Below, one piece after another: positions 50,454 through 63,315 of a DNA stretch of 64,000 nucleotides (position 1 is the stretch's first letter; every line of letters begins with the position of its first letter). Origin of the DNA: Chitinophagaceae bacterium. GTDB taxonomy: Bacteria; Bacteroidota; Bacteroidia; Cytophagales; JASGCU01. Under the pieces are notes generated by a model, which had not been told where the DNA came from, ran no database searches, and saw only the letters and a program-made list of their open reading frames with translations. The position numbers were made by a program, and so were the translations under genes. Where the stretch lies: NCBI GenBank assembly GCA_030053935.1, contig JASGCU010000001.1:14738-78737 (forward strand). The letters are read 5' to 3'.

Positions 50454-51206
50454 TTACATTTTTTTTCTGATCAATTTTAGAATACCATTTATGAAAGTAA
50501 GTGGGTGTGGTGGGTTTCCGGGTACATAGAGGTCTATGGAGTATTTTTGGATGAACTCTCTTTTTAGGGCAGGTGATTCTTGGAATATTCCTCCGGATAT
50601 AGCGTCTGTTCCTGCGAGAATAATTATTTTTGGGTTTGGAACGGCATCATAGCATATTTGAGTAGCTTCAGCCATATTTACAGATAGGGGTCCGGATATT
50701 ACTATTCCATCTGCATGCCTTGGTGAGGCGACAAAGTTTATTCCGAACCTTCCCATATCAAAGTTTACATTTTCTGTGGCGTTGAGTTCTAGTTCTGTAG
50801 AATTATCGCCGGCAGCACATATTTGTCGTAATTTTAAGCTTCTTCCAAAAAGAGATCTTATTTCTTTGCGTATTAATGCTTCATTCAAGAGTATGTGGTT
50901 CTCTTCTCCTTCGGTTATGATGAGGTTTTCTCTTACATTTGTTGCCATATTATGTTCGTTTGTGAATGTTATTTTTTGGGGGGCATAAAAAGCGCATGCG
51001 CCGCAAAAAGTGCATTTTCCTAAATCTATAGAAAATGGATTTTTTTGAATAGCATTTGTAGGGCAGATACTCTCTAAAAGATCTTTATCTGCGGGTTCTT
51101 TATTTATGATAGGTTTTCCTTTAAATGGTGGTGGTATTGTTGCTTTTGTAATATCGGGAATGTATTGTTTTCCTTGTAGTTTTAATAGTTTCAATTCTGC
51201 TATCAT
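50454..51206 (-). CDS. HyfH+HyfI-like fusion: ferredoxin-like remnant fused to a NuoB/HycG-like small subunit lacking Fe-S ligands
   Basis: 250-aa ORF. The N-terminal part reads ICPTNAI...GKCTFCGACAFYAP. The C-terminal part reads FVASPRHADGIVISGP...GTDAISGGIF...DLYVPGNPPHP, which is collinear with HycG/NuoB but has Cys replaced by D and N. Confidence 0.75.
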   Translation of the reverse strand: MIAELKLLKLQGKQYIPDITKATIPPPFKGKPIINKEPADKDLLESICPTNAIQKNPFSIDLGKCTFCGACAFYAPQKITFTNEHNMATNVRENLIITEGEENHILLNEALIRKEIRSLFGRSLKLRQICAAGDNSTELELNATENVNFDMGRFGINFVASPRHADGIVISGPLSVNMAEATQICYDAVPNPKIIILAGTDAISGGIFQESPALKREFIQKYSIDLYVPGNPPHPLTFINGILKLIRKKM

Positions 51207-51242
51207 TTTGTTTTTTTTTAAGAAAGATGGTAAGAAAGTATT

Positions 51243-52814
51243 TTATAGGTCATTTCCGCAATAGGAAAGATTAAAGCTTTTATTATTTATAGGGAAATCG
51301 GATATTTCTAATTCTCTCAATGCTATTTCTAATGCTTTCCAGTTGTGGAGGGATGGGTCTTTTATTTTATAATGTATTATTTTTCCTGTGCTATCGGTGA
51401 TGGCAGAGTGTACTATTTCGCCACGCCATCCTTCTGCAAGGGAAAAGGCGATATGTTCTTTTTTGAGGGACAGCTGTTCGTCTAAAATGGGTGATGGTAT
51501 TGTTTCATTATTTTGTTTCCAAAGATGGATCAGGGATTGGATGTAGCGGATAGATTTTTTTATTTCCATTCTTCGGAGTAAAGCCCGAGAAAAAACATCT
51601 CCTGTGGTAGTTATACTCGTGAAATAAGGATTATAAACATAAGCCATAGATGGGTGTGATGCTCTGATATCTCTGATAATTCCGCATGAACGGGCTACCA
51701 TACCTACTGCTCCTATTTGTTGTGCTTGAGTTTTTGTTACATTTCCTATTCCTTTGAGGCGTAAAATAGCGCTGGGGAGTGAAAATAGTTTTTGAGACAT
51801 TTGGTCGAATTTTTTTTCGTAGTTATGTAGTAGTTTGAGTATGTTTTCTGCTAATATGAGAGAAAATGGATGAAATGTTCCATTTGCTCGTATGAGTGAT
51901 TTTCCGAATCTATTTCCGCACCAGCTCTGTAAAAAGTTAATAATGGGAGTTCTTAAAGCTGCGTAGACAGAAGCACTGAGTTGATACGCTATTCCGATTG
52001 ATAGGTTGGCAAGGTCAGCTGTGTGCATTGCTATGCGTTCTAATTCCATTGCGATGGTTCTTTCTAGTTCTAATTTTTGAGGAATAGGAGATCCGTTTAG
52101 CGCTTCTATTACAGAGCAAAAAACTACAGAGTGCCCTATAGATGTGTCTCCTGCTATATTCTCTGCAAGGGTATTTCTTTGGAATAGTTTTGTTTTTTGT
52201 AAAAAAAGTGTTTCTATTCCTCTGTGTTGCCACCCCAGTTGTATTTCTAAATGGTGTACTGTTTCCCCGTGGCAAGTAAATCTAAAATGACCTGGCTCTA
52301 TAACTCCTGCATGTATAGGACCTACACCTATTTGATGTAGTTGGCTTCCTTCTATTTCATAGAAAGGGTAATTATAGATGTTCTGTGAAGTATCTTCTCT
52401 ATTGTGGGGGTAGCGAATCGGTTTGAGCCATGGATGATTTTCAAAATATATTCCAAAATTTTCTGCTATTTCTCTTTCAAAAATATGCATTGCTTCTATA
52501 GATTGAGTGATGGATTCCAATTTTTTTTTCTTGGCATTTTCTATTATATGGGAAAGAAGGAGTATATTTTTTGTTTCGTCATCGGCAATAGCAATGATGC
52601 ACTGCAAGTTATTTTTTTGGGGGTAGGCGTAGTAGTTCACACAATGAAAAGTATCATTGCTTTTTATTATATCTACCACAGTGGTATAAAAATCTGTATA
52701 ATTTAGTATGGGAACAGATTGTATTTCTATTGCTTGATTATTTTTAACAGAAACAAACTTCTTGATGAGTGTTTGTATGTTTTTTTTTCTTAGTTCGTTT
52801 ATTGATGTATTCAT
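51243..52814 (-). CDS. HycE/HyfG/NuoC-D-like large subunit lacking the [NiFe]-binding cysteines
   Basis: 523-aa ORF with a NuoC-like N-terminus (ENHPWLKPIRYPHN) and a NuoD/HycE-like core (GVGPIHAGVIEPGHFRF, LGWQHRGIE). The L1 site reads ENIAGDTSIGHS and the C-terminus reads NLSYCGNDL. Confidence 0.8.
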   Translation of the reverse strand: MNTSINELRKKNIQTLIKKFVSVKNNQAIEIQSVPILNYTDFYTTVVDIIKSNDTFHCVNYYAYPQKNNLQCIIAIADDETKNILLLSHIIENAKKKKLESITQSIEAMHIFEREIAENFGIYFENHPWLKPIRYPHNREDTSQNIYNYPFYEIEGSQLHQIGVGPIHAGVIEPGHFRFTCHGETVHHLEIQLGWQHRGIETLFLQKTKLFQRNTLAENIAGDTSIGHSVVFCSVIEALNGSPIPQKLELERTIAMELERIAMHTADLANLSIGIAYQLSASVYAALRTPIINFLQSWCGNRFGKSLIRANGTFHPFSLILAENILKLLHNYEKKFDQMSQKLFSLPSAILRLKGIGNVTKTQAQQIGAVGMVARSCGIIRDIRASHPSMAYVYNPYFTSITTTGDVFSRALLRRMEIKKSIRYIQSLIHLWKQNNETIPSPILDEQLSLKKEHIAFSLAEGWRGEIVHSAITDSTGKIIHYKIKDPSLHNWKALEIALRELEISDFPINNKSFNLSYCGNDL

Positions 52815-52816
52815 TT

Positions 52817-54238
52817 TTATGGGATGAAAGGGTTTATAGATTTATGTATATGCTTTGCTAAAAAATCAAATTGAGTGATTCCCATATACATAACGGATAA
52901 TATGACTAAAAGTTGTATGATAGAATGCCATTTGTTTATTGCTGATAGTTCTACTTTTGTTGTTCTTTGAGATGAGTAAATAATAGGAATAATACGATGT
53001 ATTATCCCATATAATATGATAATGAGAAATACCATAGTAATACCTAGTATAAAATAATGATGGCTGAGAAATATACTTTTTAGTATAAGGAATTCGGAGA
53101 AGAATATCCCCGTTGGGGGGAATGCGAGTAACGAATATGTTCCTAATAGTATTACTAATGCCCCTATGGGATTTATTTTTATATAGTTACCTATAGAATC
53201 ATCTATTTTAGAATGAAATATGCTGTGCATTTGTCCTATCTGAAAAAAGAGAACGGATTTTATAAGAGAGTGAAATACCAAATGGAGAACAGAAGCAAAG
53301 TATCCAATACCACCACAAGCAAAGGCAATTACTGCTAAACTAGCATGTTCCATCCCTGAATAAGCAAGGAGGCGTTTGATATTTTTTACTTTTAATAAAT
53401 AAACAGATGCAAAAAGTAAACTTAATACTCCAGTGATGAGAAGTACCTTATTCATCCATTCTTGGATAGGAGTATAAGCATAATAAAACCGAAGAATGGT
53501 AACAAATGCAGCATTGAGCATAACAGAACTAAGATTTGCTCCTACGGGAGAAGGGGCTACATCTTTTGCATCTATATCTACGTTGAAAAGTGGTACCAGT
53601 CCCATTTTTACACTAAATCCCGTAAGAATAAAAAGAAAAGAAGTTTTGAGCCATAAGGGGTTCATACTATATGCATGTTTTTTTACTACCTCGTATGATA
53701 AATCATGGTCCGTGGTCTGATTCACCGCTATTGTTAAAAAAAGTATTCCTGCAAAAGCCAGTGCTACCCCAATAGAGCAAACATACAAGTATTTCCATGT
53801 CGCTTCCAAAGCCCCTTTATCTCTATCATGATAAATAAGTAAACTCGCTGAAAGGGTCGTTGCTTCTATAAATACCCATAAAAATCCAAAATTATTCGTA
53901 GTGAGTACACCTGTTATTGAGGCATAAAAAATAATTGTCCCAGCGTTATGAAGTCGTATAGTATAATCCGTTTCTTGCCTCACTTCTGCATATTGCTTGT
54001 AATGGATCCCAGACAAAAAAGATATTATAACCGTAAGCCATAAAAAAAGTAACGAAAGATTATCTACCATAAAAAAAGTATCATATACTATCCCCACTCG
54101 CATACTAAAAAAGCACACAAAACCTAATAAAACAAACGAATATAAGAATGTAATAAGATGACTTATTGTTTTATTGAAAAAAAAACTCCCTCCTATACAG
54201 AGACACGAAACTATTAAAAAAGAAAGAACCATATACAT
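52817..54238 (-). CDS. HyfF/NuoN/MrpD-like antiporter-type membrane subunit
   Basis: 473-aa polytopic ORF in the proton-conducting-membrane-transporter family (KMGLVPLFNVDIDAKDVAPSPVGANLSSVMLNAAF). Confidence 0.75.
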   Translation of the reverse strand: MYMVLSFLIVSCLCIGGSFFFNKTISHLITFLYSFVLLGFVCFFSMRVGIVYDTFFMVDNLSLLFLWLTVIISFLSGIHYKQYAEVRQETDYTIRLHNAGTIIFYASITGVLTTNNFGFLWVFIEATTLSASLLIYHDRDKGALEATWKYLYVCSIGVALAFAGILFLTIAVNQTTDHDLSYEVVKKHAYSMNPLWLKTSFLFILTGFSVKMGLVPLFNVDIDAKDVAPSPVGANLSSVMLNAAFVTILRFYYAYTPIQEWMNKVLLITGVLSLLFASVYLLKVKNIKRLLAYSGMEHASLAVIAFACGGIGYFASVLHLVFHSLIKSVLFFQIGQMHSIFHSKIDDSIGNYIKINPIGALVILLGTYSLLAFPPTGIFFSEFLILKSIFLSHHYFILGITMVFLIIILYGIIHRIIPIIYSSQRTTKVELSAINKWHSIIQLLVILSVMYMGITQFDFLAKHIHKSINPFIP

Positions 54239-54287
54239 TATATTTGTTTTTTTTAGTAATATAAAATAAAACTATATCTAAATTTTT

Positions 54288-54926
54288 CTAATCTTTCAAA
54301 TCAGACAAACTATCCGCATTGTCTGCCTCAAAAGTAATACTGACCCTATTAAAAAATATACCCATTACCAAAATACTACTAAAAATATCCAATAAGATAG
54401 CTGAATTTATCAGAATAGGAATATCACTCCCTATTGCTAAGGAAAGCAAAAAAATACCATTTTCTAACACCAAATACCCAACTATGTGAGTAATAATCTC
54501 TTTGTGTGTAATTGCTATAAATAAACCTATAAGAACAGAAGATATTGCCACCGTGAGATATTTAATATTCAAATGCTCTTTATAAAGTATATGTGCTAAA
54601 GTAAAACTTATCAGCACCGCCACTATAGCAAATAATACAGAATAAAACCCTTGTAATAAAAACACATTATGTCTTGAATTTTCCATCATATTTTGTCTTT
54701 TTATAATCCATTTCAAAAATAAAGGGATAAATATCGCTTTAAATACGAGGGTTTCTAACAAAATAAACACTAAATGTTTTATATCTATTTCATGAAGCTC
54801 TAAAATACCAATGAAAAACAGTAAAATCCCTTGAAACCCTAACAGCCAAACATAACTCACTACTAACTCTGTCTTTACTAAAAATATTAAACTAATAAGA
54901 AATAAAATGATAAGAAACGAAAGCAT
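54288..54926 (-). CDS. HyfE-like small membrane subunit
   Basis: 212-aa ORF with ~7 TM segments. Its position between the HyfC-like and HyfF-like genes matches hyf operon order. Confidence 0.6.
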   Translation of the reverse strand: MLSFLIILFLISLIFLVKTELVVSYVWLLGFQGILLFFIGILELHEIDIKHLVFILLETLVFKAIFIPLFLKWIIKRQNMMENSRHNVFLLQGFYSVLFAIVAVLISFTLAHILYKEHLNIKYLTVAISSVLIGLFIAITHKEIITHIVGYLVLENGIFLLSLAIGSDIPILINSAILLDIFSSILVMGIFFNRVSITFEADNADSLSDLKD

Positions 54927-54931
54927 AATTT

Positions 54932-55840
54932 TTATATTTTATTGTTAATAATAATAATTACAAATAAAAGTATGATAGAAAAACAGAAGAGGGATATTAA
55001 AAAAATACTGTTTTTTATCATTTTATTCCTTGCTCTAAATGATTCATAAATCCCTATCCCAACAGCAAAGAGAACCTGTATACATAAAAATAGAAATATT
55101 GCTAATATACCCTGTAAATCCCCAGGTAATATACAATTGGCTATAAAAGTACCGAATATACTCATTTTTAGTGCTGTCCCTAATTGCACTAATGCTAAAT
55201 CAAAACCACTGTGATCTAAAATTATCACTTCATGTACCATAGTAAGCTCCAAATGTGTGTTTGGATCATCAACAGGGAGACGGCTCGTTTCCACTAAAGT
55301 AATACTTGCTAATATATATACACTCAAAAATGCTATCATGAAAGAAAAATCCGACCCAAAATGAAGCTCCTGAAACAGTGACGCAAATGAAGTATGACCC
55401 GTAAACATACACAAAGAAGCTAATAAAGTAAAAAACACCGGCTCCACAAACAAACTATACAGAACTTCCCTATTTACTCCCATTCCTTCAAAACCACTAG
55501 AAACATCTAAACCCGAAAGGACCATAAAAAAACGCCCTAAACTAAACATATATGCAAAAAAAATAAAATCTCCCTCAAAGGAAAGAATCCCATTAAAATG
55601 GCATACAGGTACTACTAAAGACCCAATTAAGATACTCACAAAGTAAACCACAGAACCTATCTGCATAAGAAACGAAGAAGAACTGCTAAAAATACTCCCT
55701 TTTTTGAATAACCGCATTATATCATAAAACGGTTGAAAAATAGAAGCACCGCAACGACCACTCAAATACGCCTTAGTCCGAGCAATTATACCTGAAAAAA
55801 CCAAAGCCGATACAAATATTAACAAAAATACTACCATCAC
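54932..55840 (-). CDS. HyfC/HycD/NuoH-like membrane subunit
   Basis: 302-aa polytopic ORF with the NuoH-like conserved patch RLPVDDPNTHLELTMVHE. Its start overlaps the upstream gene's stop (55837-55840). Confidence 0.7.
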   Translation of the reverse strand: MMVVFLLIFVSALVFSGIIARTKAYLSGRCGASIFQPFYDIMRLFKKGSIFSSSSSFLMQIGSVVYFVSILIGSLVVPVCHFNGILSFEGDFIFFAYMFSLGRFFMVLSGLDVSSGFEGMGVNREVLYSLFVEPVFFTLLASLCMFTGHTSFASLFQELHFGSDFSFMIAFLSVYILASITLVETSRLPVDDPNTHLELTMVHEVIILDHSGFDLALVQLGTALKMSIFGTFIANCILPGDLQGILAIFLFLCIQVLFAVGIGIYESFRARNKMIKNSIFLISLFCFSIILLFVIIIINNKI

Positions 55841-57810
55841 AATATGCTTAAAAATGTTAATAACCCTATTATTAATAAAAATAATAACGGATATACTACA
55901 TAATGATTAATATATCCCGTCTGAACCTTTGCCATAACATGCGAGCAAAAGAAAATAATACCCGATATTTTTTGTGTAAAGAAAACATCTAACCCATCTT
56001 TTACATAAGAATGAAATTTTCTCCCCACAGGAAATATCTCTTTCTCCTCTATCTTTTTATATTCTACTTTATTATGCAACACAGGATTCAAAATACCTCT
56101 TAGATTATCTGAAAAAGAAGAGAGTGTATACTGATGTCTATAATCCGATCCCGAATAACCACAACCCCAAGTAGCACTCCTTTCTACGATTACTTTTGAC
56201 AAATGCCACCTCCTCAAAGCATATATTATTCCAAAACATATTATCAATCCTATATGAAGAATACTTATACTCTCTAATGTTCCTATCAAAGCATCACGGT
56301 CTGTACTTTCTAATGAAAAAACACCGACGCTTCTTTCTAAAAAAAGAAACATATACTGAGGCAAAATACCAATACAAAGCATAAAAAATATCAACACAAA
56401 AGGAAGTTTTGTCATCCAAAAAGAATTTTCTGGAAGCTTTTTTTCCCCTAAAACACTACGGCTACTCCCCAAAAAAGTTAAACCATACATTCTTACAAAA
56501 GAAAAAAGAGACAAACCACCTATTAAAGTCATCCCTATAATAGATACAACACCCAAAATAATCTCTTGATACGAACCCCCTAATACAAAAGAATAAGAAG
56601 CCCTATACAGTAAAAATTCCGAAATAAAACCATTCAAAGGCGGTAAAGCTAAAATACCCATAGAACCCATTAAAACTAAAAAACTCGTAACAGGAATCTT
56701 TTGTGCCAATCCTCCTAAAAGCGTCGCATCCGTACCGCCTACCATTTTTTGAATATTCCCAGTCATAAAAAATAATAACGACTTATACAAACAATGCCCA
56801 AACACATGTAGCAAAGCACCCGAAAAACCCAAATACGAAATTATAGAAGAATGAAAACCCCTTCCCAAAAGTCCTATTCCCATACCTATTCCTATAATTC
56901 CTATGTTTTCTATGCTACTATATGCAAATATCCGTTTTATATCTTTTTCAAAAATCGACTGTAAAATCCCATATATACCCGTGCAAATCCCAAAAAACAA
57001 CATCCCCATCCCAAACTCTAAAGAAAAAACACTTATAGGTATAATAACTTTCATAATTCCAAAAATACCCATCTTCGTAATAATAGCAGACATTATTGCT
57101 GAAATATGCGAAGGAGAAGCAGCATGAGCATCAGGAAGCCACGAATGAAAAGGAATAAAGCCCGCTTTAAACCCAAATCCTATACATAAAAAAACACTCA
57201 CTATCACACTTTCTTTCTGACCTGATATCTTTCCTAAACTCTCAAAAGACATACTCCCCGTAAAACTATCCAAAAGAAAAAAACCTATACACAGAAAGAA
57301 AAAACCTATATGCATCTGAACAATATACCGTAAAGCAGCATCTATTACCTTCTTTTCTTCCGAATGAAAAAGTATCAGTAAAAAGGCACTCACCGTCATC
57401 ATTTCCCACCAAAATAAAAATGAGAACCCTCCATCCATACTTACTACCAATATCAAAGAACTATGCAGTAATACCAACGAAAAAAAATACAAAGACATCC
57501 ACATATTTCCCTTCTTCAAATCATAACCTTGCATATAATCTAAAGCGTAAAAATTCGCTACCATTACAACTATATGAATCATAAGTGAAAACAGAAAAGA
57601 CAAACCATCTATTTTTATAAAAATAGCTTCTTGTGAAAAAGGCGATAAAAAATACACAATCTGAACACCACTATTCCAAAAATTCAAAACCCAACGCATA
57701 TCTACCACAAAAATAAATAAATGCAACAACAACGAATAGTATTTTTTTATACCCGATGGCAGTATAAAAATAGCCCCCCCTAATAAAAGCACTCCTAATA
57801 TTAAAAACAT
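55837..57810 (-). CDS. HyfB/HycC/NuoL-like antiporter-type membrane subunit
   Basis: 657-aa polytopic ORF with HSWLPDAHAASPSHISAIMSAIITKMGIFG, typical of NuoL/MrpA/HyfB. Confidence 0.8.
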   Translation of the reverse strand: MFLILGVLLLGGAIFILPSGIKKYYSLLLHLFIFVVDMRWVLNFWNSGVQIVYFLSPFSQEAIFIKIDGLSFLFSLMIHIVVMVANFYALDYMQGYDLKKGNMWMSLYFFSLVLLHSSLILVVSMDGGFSFLFWWEMMTVSAFLLILFHSEEKKVIDAALRYIVQMHIGFFFLCIGFFLLDSFTGSMSFESLGKISGQKESVIVSVFLCIGFGFKAGFIPFHSWLPDAHAASPSHISAIMSAIITKMGIFGIMKVIIPISVFSLEFGMGMLFFGICTGIYGILQSIFEKDIKRIFAYSSIENIGIIGIGMGIGLLGRGFHSSIISYLGFSGALLHVFGHCLYKSLLFFMTGNIQKMVGGTDATLLGGLAQKIPVTSFLVLMGSMGILALPPLNGFISEFLLYRASYSFVLGGSYQEIILGVVSIIGMTLIGGLSLFSFVRMYGLTFLGSSRSVLGEKKLPENSFWMTKLPFVLIFFMLCIGILPQYMFLFLERSVGVFSLESTDRDALIGTLESISILHIGLIICFGIIYALRRWHLSKVIVERSATWGCGYSGSDYRHQYTLSSFSDNLRGILNPVLHNKVEYKKIEEKEIFPVGRKFHSYVKDGLDVFFTQKISGIIFFCSHVMAKVQTGYINHYVVYPLLFLLIIGLLTFLSIL

Positions 57811-57885: not shown

Positions 57886-60072
57886 CTACTTTTTTTCAAG
57901 TAATACACTCAAAAATTTCTCGGAAAATCTTATTATTTGTGTTATACCATACACATCTAATAACTCTTTCTTAGAATGGATAACAACCCTATTTTTACGG
58001 CACTCCATGTGAACATACACATTGTCTTCAAAAAATGTTATTATACTTTTATCAAAAAACTTGTTTATAGCATCCTCTTCATCCCCTCGCAAGTAATATT
58101 TTTGTGAAAATATAGGATATTCTGGAAAATCTATATCTTTACCAGAAGAAATTTCTGAAATCTTTGTAAAAAATCCCTCCGGAATAAGTATGAAATCTGG
58201 AACACTCAACGGTAATTCTGTCAAATACAAAACAGTAATAAAAGTATCATTCCGCTCCCGTAATACTCCCTCTGTTATAATAATATCAGATACAGTCACA
58301 TGCCCTTTTTCCAAATATACATCCAAAACGTTCTCTTCGTAAGAAATTCTACTCCCTATCTGAATATTAAAATCCCTAAATTTCATAAGATTCTTCACCT
58401 TTTGTGGAATAAAACCATACTCATTTTCAGAAGCATATATCTGTAAGGCACGCTGTCTTTCTGATAGCTTTATCTCTATTTTATATTTGGTATTAGGATC
58501 ATATTTTCGAGATGCAGTAGGATATTCTGAAAAAAGACGAAAATTATCAAAGCCTGTTATAGAAACCTTCCCCCCTTTGTCTGTAAAGTCTGATTCAAAA
58601 TATGCCAAAGCATCCATAAAACTATGATCTACAAACTTAGAACCCGAAAAATCAAAGATAATCAGTTTCTCTTTAAGTAATCCCATAAATAATTTTTTAT
58701 ATCCTATTAAATTAGAAAATATTGCCGACCCAAAGACAAAAACTTTATATCCTCCCTCTATACTCTCTAATGTGTAACGCGGTTTAAATAAATCCCGAAC
58801 AGAAACCCCGTTATATAAATGATATAAAAATTTAATCAAAACACCTGTAAAAATACCTATTAACAGATCTGTTACCAAAGTCGTAATTATGGTTACTAAA
58901 AAAATAACTAACTGCTCTGAACCTATTTTATACATTTTTAGAAACTCACTCGGCGATGCCAATCTATATGCCACTGATATCAAGAGGGCTGCCAAAGCAG
59001 AATTAGGTATCAATTCTATAATAGGTATAAAAAATAGCATCGCTACAAATAGAAAAAAACCATGGAAAAAATTAGACCAACGAGTCCTTGCTCCAAAAGT
59101 AATATTAGCAGAGCTCCTCGCTACCTCTGATATCATAGGAATTCCACCAAATAAACTTGAAATGGTATTCCCAAAACCAACTGCTATCAAATCCTTATTC
59201 GGGTCAGATTCTCGCTTCCAAGGATCTAAACCATCCATAGCACGCACCGTCAGCAAGGACTCTAAACTCCCTACTAACAAAAACATCAATACGTACTTCC
59301 AAAAAACAATACTCGAAATCCCAGAAAAATCCGCATGGAAAGTAATATCTTTCCAAAAATCCCCTATACCCACTAATGCATACTGAGGCTCCGTATCTTT
59401 AAAATCCATAAATATCTCCATTGGAATGGTTACTAATAAAACCAGTAATGCTATAGGTATCTTTTTCAAAATACCTATCTTTACCTTTGGAACCCCAAAA
59501 ATTATGAATAAACTTACTATACCAATGATAGTAACCCGAATATCCTCGTGAATAATAGAACTCGGAATCTTTCCATATAACTCTAAAGCACTGAACCCTT
59601 TTAATTCTGCAGGATCAATCCCCAAAAGAATATGGATTTGTTTAGAAAAAATAATCAATCCTATTGCTGCCAACATTCCATGCACCGCTGCATATGGAAA
59701 AAAAACAGTCAAAGAACCTATTTTAAAAAAACCAAATACCATCTGAAAAAGAGACGCTACGACTATAACTCCTAATGCCAATTCCCAACCCGATTCCCCA
59801 CCACCAAATTCCATCACACAACCCGAACAAATAGTAATCAAACCCGCTGCGGGTCCTTTTATGGTTAACCGAGAACCAGAAAAAATACTTACCAGCATAC
59901 CACCAACCATTGCCGTAAAAACCCCCATTGATGCAGGAAATTCGCTCGCCTTTGCTATACCCAAACTTAACGGTAAAGCGAGCAAAAACACCATAAAACC
60001 CGACGTCATATCTCCCAACCAATTCTCCTTCAATCCTTTTATTCCATCTAAAGGAACCCTTTGTGCTATCAT
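57886..60072 (-). CDS. SulP-family anion transporter with STAS domain and an extra ~200-aa C-terminal domain
   Basis: 728-aa ORF. The SulP TM core includes LPLSLGIAKASEFPASMG and AVGFGNTISSLFGGIPM. A STAS-like segment follows (KVFVFGSAIFSNLIGYKKLF...IIFDFSGSKFVDHSFMDAL). About 200 further residues match no domain I recognise. Confidence 0.8.
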   Translation of the reverse strand: MIAQRVPLDGIKGLKENWLGDMTSGFMVFLLALPLSLGIAKASEFPASMGVFTAMVGGMLVSIFSGSRLTIKGPAAGLITICSGCVMEFGGGESGWELALGVIVVASLFQMVFGFFKIGSLTVFFPYAAVHGMLAAIGLIIFSKQIHILLGIDPAELKGFSALELYGKIPSSIIHEDIRVTIIGIVSLFIIFGVPKVKIGILKKIPIALLVLLVTIPMEIFMDFKDTEPQYALVGIGDFWKDITFHADFSGISSIVFWKYVLMFLLVGSLESLLTVRAMDGLDPWKRESDPNKDLIAVGFGNTISSLFGGIPMISEVARSSANITFGARTRWSNFFHGFFLFVAMLFFIPIIELIPNSALAALLISVAYRLASPSEFLKMYKIGSEQLVIFLVTIITTLVTDLLIGIFTGVLIKFLYHLYNGVSVRDLFKPRYTLESIEGGYKVFVFGSAIFSNLIGYKKLFMGLLKEKLIIFDFSGSKFVDHSFMDALAYFESDFTDKGGKVSITGFDNFRLFSEYPTASRKYDPNTKYKIEIKLSERQRALQIYASENEYGFIPQKVKNLMKFRDFNIQIGSRISYEENVLDVYLEKGHVTVSDIIITEGVLRERNDTFITVLYLTELPLSVPDFILIPEGFFTKISEISSGKDIDFPEYPIFSQKYYLRGDEEDAINKFFDKSIITFFEDNVYVHMECRKNRVVIHSKKELLDVYGITQIIRFSEKFLSVLLEKK

Positions 60073-61914: not shown

Positions 61915-63315
61915 TTGTTTCACTCTCTACCAAAAATGAATTTTTTGCTTCCCATATCATATATCTATTACAGTATACCATCACTATTAAGGGCAATAAC
62001 CAAGAGAATCTTGCTATTTTCTTTGTTCATTGCCCTTTCTTATACTACAAAAGCAGAGAATACATTTTTGTCTTATCGAATAAATACATACCAAAAAAAC
62101 TACTATCCCCCTACTTACAGAAGGTCTTTTTCTCAATCTTCTTTTTTTCGAAAAAACTCAACCCCATCTCCAAAAATAAGAAAACGCCCCCCCGTATCCC
62201 TTTCCCGAAAACGACAGAGAACCAAACCCCTCTTCATTGCATTGAACGATATAGGAACTTCTATCCGTAAAAATATTCAACAAAATAGAATTTCTGATAG
62301 AAAAACATCATTTTATAATCAAACTTACCCTCTCAAAAAAACTCATCAAACAGCAACAAGAGAAAAACAACATAAAAAAAAAAACAGTATACATTCTTCT
62401 CGTAATAGTAATATCCACTTGATAACCAAAACAAGTGTGGCAATAATCTTAGCCCCGGTAGCTATTCCTTATCTTTTGTTAGAAAAAGTATTTTCTCATA
62501 CTACATCGGGAGGGGAAATAAGTATCAGAAAAACAAAACCCGTATCTATTTCTCGTAGAAGAACAAAATCCCAACCATTACTCACTTCTCTATTCGCTCT
62601 CAAAAAGAAGAAAAATACTCTTTCTCCCCATAGAAATAAAAATCTAAATACCGAAGTAGCTGTATACAAAAGAAAAATGCAATACAAAACTACCGCATAT
62701 TCTCATACCAAACAGGACTATAAAAACACACGTTCCCAATCTTACAAATTCAAAAGTATCTTTTTGACCAGTTCTTCTGTGGTATTAGCTCCTGTAGTTA
62801 TTCCATATATACTTGTAAAAAAAATATTTGAAAAGAACCATCATATATCCCGTGAAAAAAGTCACAAAAGAACAGAACCCGTATCCATATCCCGTAAAAG
62901 GACAAAAGCACCTCCTATATTCATATCCTTTCACACATGGAAACAAAAAACTATCCATACTATTTCCCGCGGCTCTATAAAAAATAAGCATATATCACCC
63001 TTAGATGATAGAGTTTATTCCTCGCAAAATACCAACAAAAACTCAAAATCTAAATCTATACTTTTTTATAGCAGTGCAGTAATAGTATCCCCTATTATAG
63101 CACCTTATTTGCTTATCAAAAAATTATATAATCAAACGAATTCCTCCTCCAAACAAAAAACATTTACCAAAAATGAACACCAATCCAATTTTTATAAAGA
63201 GGTAAATGATGTAAAATGGTCTCTCAAGTCCTTATGGAAAGGATTAACGGATGCAGTAAAACGCATCAGAAAATCGCCATACGATAGGGGAGAAAGTGCT
63301 ATTTGGTATAAATAG
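61915..63315 (+). CDS. Highly basic protein with three tandem ~113-aa repeats, each with a hydrophobic segment
   Basis: A 466-aa ORF is very unlikely by chance in AT-rich DNA. The repeats carry PVS(L/I)SR(K/R)R...P(L/I)F and (A/S)P(V/I)xIPY(L/I)L.KK(I/L/V)(F/Y). The more likely start is the MNFLL Met at 61936, which gives a signal/anchor-like N-terminus. Confidence 0.6.
   Translation: MFHSLPKMNFLLPISYIYYSIPSLLRAITKRILLFSLFIALSYTTKAENTFLSYRINTYQKNYYPPTYRRSFSQSSFFRKNSTPSPKIRKRPPVSLSRKRQRTKPLFIALNDIGTSIRKNIQQNRISDRKTSFYNQTYPLKKTHQTATREKQHKKKNSIHSSRNSNIHLITKTSVAIILAPVAIPYLLLEKVFSHTTSGGEISIRKTKPVSISRRRTKSQPLLTSLFALKKKKNTLSPHRNKNLNTEVAVYKRKMQYKTTAYSHTKQDYKNTRSQSYKFKSIFLTSSSVVLAPVVIPYILVKKIFEKNHHISREKSHKRTEPVSISRKRTKAPPIFISFHTWKQKTIHTISRGSIKNKHISPLDDRVYSSQNTNKNSKSKSILFYSSAVIVSPIIAPYLLIKKLYNQTNSSSKQKTFTKNEHQSNFYKEVNDVKWSLKSLWKGLTDAVKRIRKSPYDRGESAIWYK

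Follow-up and report, generated by a model that had tools for sequence, protein, structure and literature searches.

A Bacteroidota EhrS protein predicted to retain a single, probably medial, [4Fe-4S] cluster in a complex-I-like assembly without a NiFe site

1. Introduction

In the 64,000-nucleotide stretch of Chitinophagaceae DNA analyzed here (hereafter, the window), a gene at positions 50454–51206 of the minus strand encodes a protein in which a NuoI/HycF-like ferredoxin domain is fused to a NuoB/HycG-like domain, and in which most of the cysteines expected of such an iron-sulfur protein are missing. This configuration raises the question of which complex the protein belongs to, which cluster it could still bind, and what a single cluster would do once its neighbors are gone.

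The evidence discussed below leads to the Ehr complexes, which have carried this name for about two decades and occur in many phyla (PMC10284858). Their gene clusters resemble those of group 4 hydrogenases, except that the large subunit has no NiFe-binding CxxC motifs (PMC6349859, PMC10284858). Their gene layout has been named ehrABCDLS (PMC6688271), and no function has been established for them in the literature (PMC6349859, PMC10284858, PMC7894505).

2. Gene Organization and Identity of the Complex

The gene under study, designated here ehrS, is an intact ORF of 250 aa, and an identical GenBank entry (MDI9355415.1), from a Chitinophagaceae MAG, is annotated as 'hypothetical protein'. It is the last of six co-oriented genes (50454–57810, minus strand) separated by gaps of −4 to 49 nt, a layout that was kept in 60–77 of 80 genome loci. 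Upstream of ehrS on the same strand lie ehrL (51243–52814), encoding a NuoC-NuoD/HycE-like large subunit with the Pfam domains Complex1_30kDa and Complex1_49kDa; ehrD (52817–54238), encoding a HyfF/NuoN-like subunit of the antiporter type (Pfam Proton_antipo_M; syntenic in 69/80 loci); ehrC (54288–54926), whose HyfE-like membrane subunit was recognized by a weak NCBIfam match to a hydrogenase-4 membrane subunit and by synteny in 64/80 loci; ehrB (54932–55840), encoding a NuoH/HyfC-like membrane anchor (Pfam NADHdh; syntenic in 62/80 loci); and ehrA (55837–57810), encoding a HyfB/NuoL-like, antiporter-type subunit that was assigned by Pfam (Proton_antipo_M) and synteny. The cut-off of an NCBIfam model was not reached by any of the six Ehr subunits. 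In the Ehr membrane subunits, the translations still show the WxE, K, and E residues that mark antiporter-like subunits, and the preservation of these Glu and Lys residues makes ion translocation plausible. A single HyfB/NuoL-like gene was present in the window operon (55837–57810), and two such genes stood in tandem in most Bacteroidota loci (e.g., L081, 1451–5472).

When EhrL was aligned with HycE, the four NiFe-ligating cysteines C241, C244, C531, and C534 fell on A, T, S, and G, respectively, and EhrL therefore does not carry the four cysteines that mark the large subunit of a group 4 [NiFe] hydrogenase. The same alignment placed a Thr of EhrL at what we take to be the position of the quinone-binding Tyr of complex I. 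The initial annotation had labeled the protein as a HyfH-HyfI fusion, i.e., as part of hydrogenase-4, and this label had to be replaced, since both the six-gene set in ehrABCDLS order and the absence of all four NiFe cysteines identify the complex as Ehr and not as Hyf. Judged by its sequence, the operon is of the ehrABCDLS type and the window gene encodes EhrS; the six-subunit set, its order, and a large subunit devoid of NiFe cysteines are shared with the Ehr complexes described previously (PMC6349859, PMC10284858, PMC6688271, PMC7894505).

The resemblance to HycF and HycG of formate hydrogenlyase (PDB 7Z0S), and to HyfH and HyfI of hydrogenase-4, lies in homologous domains arranged in the same order, and EhrS has kept the FxGKP motif as well as, by prediction, the N-terminal helix of HycF (PMC9474812). 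However, EhrS is a single fused protein without the C-terminal Cys-quartet extension of HycF, it has ligands for one cluster instead of three, and its partner large subunit lacks a NiFe site, so the complex is not a hydrogenase. Beyond the operon itself, no neighboring gene was conserved in the 80 loci, including any electron-input module (formate dehydrogenase, NuoEF, or a HycB-like protein). When 68 Bacteroidota large subunits were compared, 150 of the 523 EhrL positions were the same in at least 97% of them. These comprise numerous His residues along with H57-C58, C181, and the terminal SY(C)GxDL, at which the protein ends without a C-terminal extension for protease maturation.

3. Cysteine Ligands and Predicted Cluster of EhrS

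In the clostridial type of 2x[4Fe-4S] ferredoxin, each cluster is bound by the CxxCxxC of one motif together with the CP cysteine of the other. The ferredoxin-like (NuoI/HycF-type) domain of EhrS comprises residues ~28–100 (50907–51125, minus strand), as delimited by an alignment with HycF over residues 28–96 and by alignments with NdhI/NuoI. It includes the FKGKP motif, which precedes the clusters in HycF, and Fer4 was recognized by Pfam at residues 59–72 with 24.3 bits against a gathering score of 21.1. The cysteines found in the ORF translation are those at residues 48, 65, 68, 71, 130, and 185.

The E. coli reference HycF was taken from NC_000913 and compared with EhrS by BLASTP, the two proteins being alignable from the shared F(R/K)GKP motif onward. 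In motif 1, C40, C43, and C46 of HycF fell on P38, K41, and L44 of EhrS, and C50-P51 on C48-P49 (51060–51065, minus strand), which is thus the sole remnant of this motif and would supply the fourth ligand of the retained cluster. In motif 2, C75, C78, and C81 corresponded to C65, C68, and C71, and C85-P to A75-P76; the resulting stretch, C65-x2-C68-x2-C71-x3-A75-P76 (50979–51014, minus strand), would provide the other three ligands and has an Ala where the CP cysteine of the other cluster would be. That A75 occupies the motif-2 CP cysteine position was observed independently in HMMER alignments with chloroplast and cyanobacterial NdhI from solved NDH structures. The Cys codons were also read directly on the minus strand, at 51063–51065 for C48, 51012–51014 for C65, 51003–51005 for C68, and 50994–50996 for C71. 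EhrS is homologous to the 2x[4Fe-4S] ferredoxin family without presenting its two CxxCxxCxxxCP motifs and eight cysteines.

The NuoB/HycG-like domain, delimited by alignment with MbhJ, comprises residues ~118–248 (50463–50855, minus strand), and Oxidored_q6 (NuoB) was recognized by Pfam at residues 138–245 (E = 3e-18). The best PDB match to the C-terminal half of EhrS was MbhJ (6CFW_J; E = 2e-21), whose four cluster cysteines fell on D134 (50805–50807), T137 (50796–50798), D201 (50604–50606), and N231 (50514–50516; all minus strand). The AF2 model of EhrS presented a mean pLDDT of 82.7, reaching ~90 over residues 31–110, which correspond to the ferredoxin core, and an N-terminal amphipathic helix of the NuoI/HycF type was predicted in it. 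The C-terminal half of this model matched MbhJ and NuoB in Foldseek with a probability of 1.00 and an rmsd of 2.2–2.4 Å, superposed on NuoB/MbhJ/HycG with 2.2–3.4 Å, and gave 2.0–2.5 Å against NuoB/NDUFS7-type chains of many complex I entries. The NuoB fold is present in EhrS, and the four cysteines of the proximal [4Fe-4S] cluster of group 4 small subunits are not.

These alignments confirmed, at the sequence level, one full four-Cys ligand set in EhrS, the complete disappearance of the other ferredoxin set, and the lack of any canonical N2 ligand, so that C48, C65, C68, and C71 are predicted to bind a [4Fe-4S] cluster. The initial annotation had described a motif 1 reduced to C48-Pro, a motif 2 with C65/C68/C71 and AP in the place of CP, and a ligand-less NuoB-like domain; the alignments with HycF, NdhI, and MbhJ agreed with this description as well as with its assignment of cysteines to clusters. 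Compared with complex I, EhrS shares the folds of NuoI, which holds N6a and N6b, and of NuoB, which holds N2, but it lacks the equivalents of N6a and N2.

4. Conservation among Bacteroidota Orthologues

The 120 best database matches of EhrS spanned many Bacteroidota lineages, some of them aerobic (e.g., Flavobacterium and Chitinophagaceae). Together with EhrS they formed an alignment of 121 sequences, the matches being 62–89% identical to it (typically ~65–70%) and nearly all of ~250 aa. C48, P49, C65, C68, C71, and P76 were invariant in 121/121 sequences, and since only 18 of the first 100 columns were invariant (66/250 overall), the cysteine pattern exceeds what chance would produce. At position 75, the residues were F in 94 sequences, Y in 13, S in 4, A in 3, and C in 2, and no conserved Cys was found at positions 38, 41, and 44.

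5. Cluster Classes in the Wider EhrS Family

When 1.8 billion representatives were searched exhaustively with HMMER, 3,679 homologues were obtained. Many of the best 150 of these were ~250-aa fusions like EhrS, and these fusions fell into four cluster classes. In class (a), both ferredoxin motifs were complete and accompanied by the four N2 cysteines. Class (b) combined the same single ferredoxin cluster as the window EhrS with the four N2 cysteines, as in P0130 (Wallbacteria) and P0131 (Cloacimonadota). Class (c) presented the single ferredoxin cluster and swapped N2 ligands, the residues differing by lineage (DTDN, DIDD, DVDS, DEDS, and others), and class (d) kept both ferredoxin clusters in the absence of N2 (P0215). 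The homologues P0127, P0188, P0234, P0148, P0144, and P0229, in which CxxCxxC appeared to be missing, were set aside because they look like frameshifted metagenome ORFs; in P0127, P0188, P0234, and P0148, the N-termini were scrambled.

The ligands of the outer ferredoxin cluster were nearly all-or-none, with 40 representatives having zero or one upstream Cys and no motif-2 CP Cys, ~26–28 having all four (counted after correcting cases with Pro directly behind the first motif-1 Cys), and ~4 being mixed. This loss or retention of ligands as a whole set is what selection on whole clusters predicts, and EhrS would constitute a clean natural case of iron-sulfur clusters lost as whole units and not ligand by ligand. 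Among 34 diverse fused homologues with a mean column identity of 27%, only 12 columns were invariant, four of them being the C48/C65/C68/C71 ligands, and Cys was found at the outer-cluster ligand columns in 17–21/34 and at the N2 ligand columns in 28/34. The initial annotation had attributed the ligand pattern to selection rather than to random decay, and had suggested testing whether this exact pattern is conserved in orthologues. The four cysteines, conserved in 121/121 orthologues and 34/34 diverse fusions, and the nearly all-or-none behavior of the outer-cluster ligands bear out this view.

A profile search with the 34-member alignment revealed both full motifs and the N2 cysteines in 114 of the best 120 matches, and such three-cluster EhrS were hosted by Deltaproteobacteria, Verrucomicrobia, Omnitrophica, Elusimicrobia, and Planctomycetes. 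Most EhrS found outside the Bacteroidota thus keep both ferredoxin clusters and N2, whereas those of the Bacteroidota keep only the medial one. The large subunits were NiFe-less in each class checked, namely, the three-cluster class (L088, L090, L091), the class with one cluster plus N2 (L085, L086), the class with two clusters without N2 (L089), and the Bacteroidota (L081). The motifs AGDT..GH and NKSFxLSYCGxDL were common to these seven aligned Ehr large subunits, except that L089 presented SSDT and SYSG. It is through the AGDT and SYCGxDL motifs, shared with other NiFe-less large subunits, that the window EhrL may be assigned to the Ehr clade beside the group 4 hydrogenases. From the predominance of three clusters among the best profile matches and the NiFe-less large subunits in all classes checked, the Bacteroidota EhrS is, as far as sequences can tell, derived from a three-cluster ancestor by the loss of both flanking clusters. 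In addition, a neighbor-joining tree, which had long branches and carried no support values, suggested that the outer cluster and N2 had been lost independently on several occasions. The ancestral EhrS would have been a HycF-HycG-type fusion with three [4Fe-4S] clusters (outer, medial, and N2-type), forming a wire to a large subunit that was already devoid of the NiFe site, and the Bacteroidota lineage would have cleanly dropped both the outer and the N2 cluster, leaving the medial one at C48/C65/C68/C71.

With regard to the cluster content of the Ehr small subunit, the literature searched went no further than noting in general terms that Ehr has no NiFe ligands. Neither the medial-only retention in Bacteroidota EhrS nor the graded family series was found described in that literature, which excluded the founding Ehr papers of Coppi (2005) and Marreiros (2013). 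The family itself is known, and the predicted medial-only variant and the graded series may be the new part. The Ehr family would offer a natural series of three, two, or one cluster, always beside a NiFe-less large subunit with conserved pocket motifs, and throughout this series no cofactor site other than that of the medial cluster is invariant. Such a series makes it testable whether Ehr needs electron flow at all, and should the Bacteroidota Ehr prove functional despite a cut wire, classical redox-driven pumping would not be the core function conserved in these complexes.

6. Identity and Possible Role of the Retained Cluster

The clusters of complex I follow the order N5-N6a-N6b-N2 (PMC8577454), and the NuoI-like subunit of MBS carries a 'distal' and a 'medial' cluster (PMC7684303). 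Since class (b) proteins keep the same cluster as the window EhrS together with N2, the retained cluster should be the one adjacent to N2, as the wire would otherwise be broken in them. In Nqo9 of Thermus, Sazanov and Hinchliffe reportedly found in 2006 that N6b is bound by the motif-1 CP Cys and the motif-2 CxxCxxC, and this is the ligand set kept in EhrS. The predicted cluster is therefore probably the medial, N2-adjacent one and the likely equivalent of N6b.

The initial annotation had also suggested that this cluster may have a structural or sensing role instead of sitting in an electron-transfer chain, which is a reasonable proposal for the window protein. A loss of electron transfer does not follow from outer-cluster loss alone, since P0130 and P0131 keep the same single cluster with an intact N2; in the Bacteroidota lineage, the wire appears broken only because N2 has disappeared in addition to the outer ferredoxin cluster. 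Considering that N2 and the NiFe site are absent and that no electron-input gene is conserved, no electron relay to the large-subunit pocket is expected by the ancestral route, and a lone medial cluster without a flanking one would provide none. Nevertheless, the medial cluster was strictly kept while both its neighbors were repeatedly lost, which argues for a requirement for this cluster itself.

In the simplest reading, the medial cluster would serve as a keystone in the structure of the ferredoxin domain and in the attachment of this domain to the NuoB-like and membrane subunits. Equally compatible with the observations, it might report the redox or oxygen state of the cell to the ion-translocating membrane arm, which would then be a cation/proton translocator either independent of redox input or gated by it. 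A structural-keystone or redox-sensing role is what our analysis suggests for the lone cluster, and taken as a whole, the explanation that we favor with some reserve is that of an EhrS belonging to a wire-cut Ehr, in which only the medial cluster is left, most likely as a structural keystone and maybe as a redox or oxygen sensor.

Some known systems share parts of this configuration. N7 of NuoG is likewise an iron-sulfur cluster retained outside the main electron pathway of complex I (PMC8577454). However, it belongs to another subunit and fold, and the rest of the complex I wire is intact. Pohl et al. reportedly found in 2007 that N7 is needed for stability. MBS of Pyrococcus furiosus is likewise related to group 4 hydrogenases and has no working NiFe site (PMC7684303), but it keeps all three clusters, of which the N2-type one is catalytic, whereas EhrS lacks the N2-type cluster. 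The Mrp Na+/H+ antiporter, which has antiporter-like membrane subunits as well, works without redox input, but it has neither a NuoB/C/D/I-like peripheral arm nor an iron-sulfur cluster.

7. Former N2 Site and Alternative Explanations

It could be argued that the single cluster is still redox-active, taking electrons from ferredoxin or another donor and then reducing a substrate that reaches it via the vacated N2 space, or driving conformational ion translocation by its redox cycling. The class (b) proteins P0130 and P0131 make a shortened ferredoxin domain compatible with a working wire, the pocket motifs of the large subunit stay conserved after the wire is cut, and MBS, a NiFe-less relative, reduces polysulfide directly at an iron-sulfur cluster (PMC7684303). 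However, the N2 site of the window EhrS reads D/T/D/N, no donor or acceptor gene was conserved nearby in the 80 loci, and aerobes such as Flavobacterium and Chitinophagaceae are among the hosts. Distance also counts against a redox-active cluster, as the path from N6b to the pocket would, by our own estimate, exceed the tunnelling limit of ~14 Å. In complex I, electrons pass from N6b over N2 to quinone in two hops, N2 lying ~12 Å from the quinone site (PMC8577454). Taken together, these points make a redox-active single cluster unlikely.

The wire might instead have been rerouted, and not cut, if the former N2 site had turned into another metal or cluster site using Asp, Asn, and relocated Cys. 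D201 and N231 were invariant in 121/121 orthologues, and position 134 was D in 90, S in 18, and A in 12 of them, while position 137 was C in 75 and D in 30, with other residues in the rest. Two alternative Asp/Cys states were observed, D134/C137/A165 in 67 sequences and S or A134/D137/C165 in 27, and C144 and C185 were found in 104/121 and 119/121 orthologues, respectively. This pattern speaks for a rerouted site, but the two states seem to reflect one change at the level of a clade, which makes the covariation of 134, 137, and 165 a single event. Moreover, the window EhrS has T137 and T144, with only C130 and C185 left in its NuoB-like domain, and we know of no [4Fe-4S] site with one Cys plus Asp, Asp, and Asn. 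A rerouted wire thus seems improbable, although a substitute metal site might keep the wire working in the orthologues that carry C137, C144, and C185. The residues 130, 134, 137, 144, 165, 185, 201, and 231 (window 50514–50819) make up a candidate for a new metal or functional site. Finally, neutral decay of a pseudogenizing hydrogenase operon, or an assembly artefact, would account for the loss of every catalytic metal ligand of the hydrogenase ancestor. Against this, the ORF is intact and of family-typical length, as many as 66 of 250 columns were invariant in the 121 sequences, the complete operon recurs in dozens of genomes, and the only apparently cluster-less homologues look like frameshifted metagenome calls. 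The conservation data effectively refute neutral decay, to which we attach almost no probability.

8. SulP Transporter and Other Neighboring Genes

A gene encoding a SulP-family anion transporter of 728 aa (57886–60072, minus strand; Pfam Sulfate_transp) was found 75 nt upstream of ehrA. Its ~200-aa C-terminal domain matched no Pfam or PDB entry and no useful homologue. Full-length SulP orthologues (59–61% identity) were located 27 nt downstream of ehrS in the Cyclobacteriaceae loci L008, L013, and L031. The pairing of ehr and SulP was thus kept in a different gene order, and the SulP-carrying loci (L008, L013, L031, L006, L018, and L039) have one EhrA gene. The SulP transporter may be a partner of the ehr operon. 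It can be speculated that the Bacteroidota Ehr is a complex-I-like machine without electron transfer, whose peripheral arm forms a regulatory cap in which the lone cluster gates the cation/proton arm according to the redox or oxygen state, and which, in the subclade of the window, is coupled to the SulP transporter of anions (bicarbonate or sulfate). The chances of this proposal being correct appear slim; if the SulP coupling were true, it would represent an energized anion uptake, loosely comparable to that of DAB or of the cyanobacterial NDH-1/Cup CO2-uptake complexes.

In L039 (11378–18756), from a Saprospiraceae MAG, ehrS was followed by SulP, a porin, a split DabA (PF10070, an inorganic-carbon pump subunit), and a 622-aa NuoL-like gene. 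Since DabA adjoined the operon in only 1/81 loci, a link with carbon uptake is not established. A Porin_O_P-like gene was also observed behind SulP in L008 and L018.

Regulatory genes were found beside some ehr operons. Directly before three-cluster ehr operons of deltaproteobacterial and verrucomicrobial MAGs, L090 (1738–2445) and L091 (1742–2431) harbored a fusion of HTH_17 and PTS_EIIA_2, i.e., a PtsN-like regulator, which hints at a regulation tied to ion or nitrogen status. Rrf2-family regulator genes stood by ehr or ehr-SulP-porin clusters of unrelated lineages, in L086 (8976–9410), L008 (14394–14834), and L013 (13086–13526), and members of this family often bind Fe-S clusters. Within the window, a Lys/Ser/Thr-rich ORF of 466 aa was found at 61915–63315 on the plus strand, containing three internal repeats, each with a hydrophobic segment (e.g., ILAPVAIPYLL).
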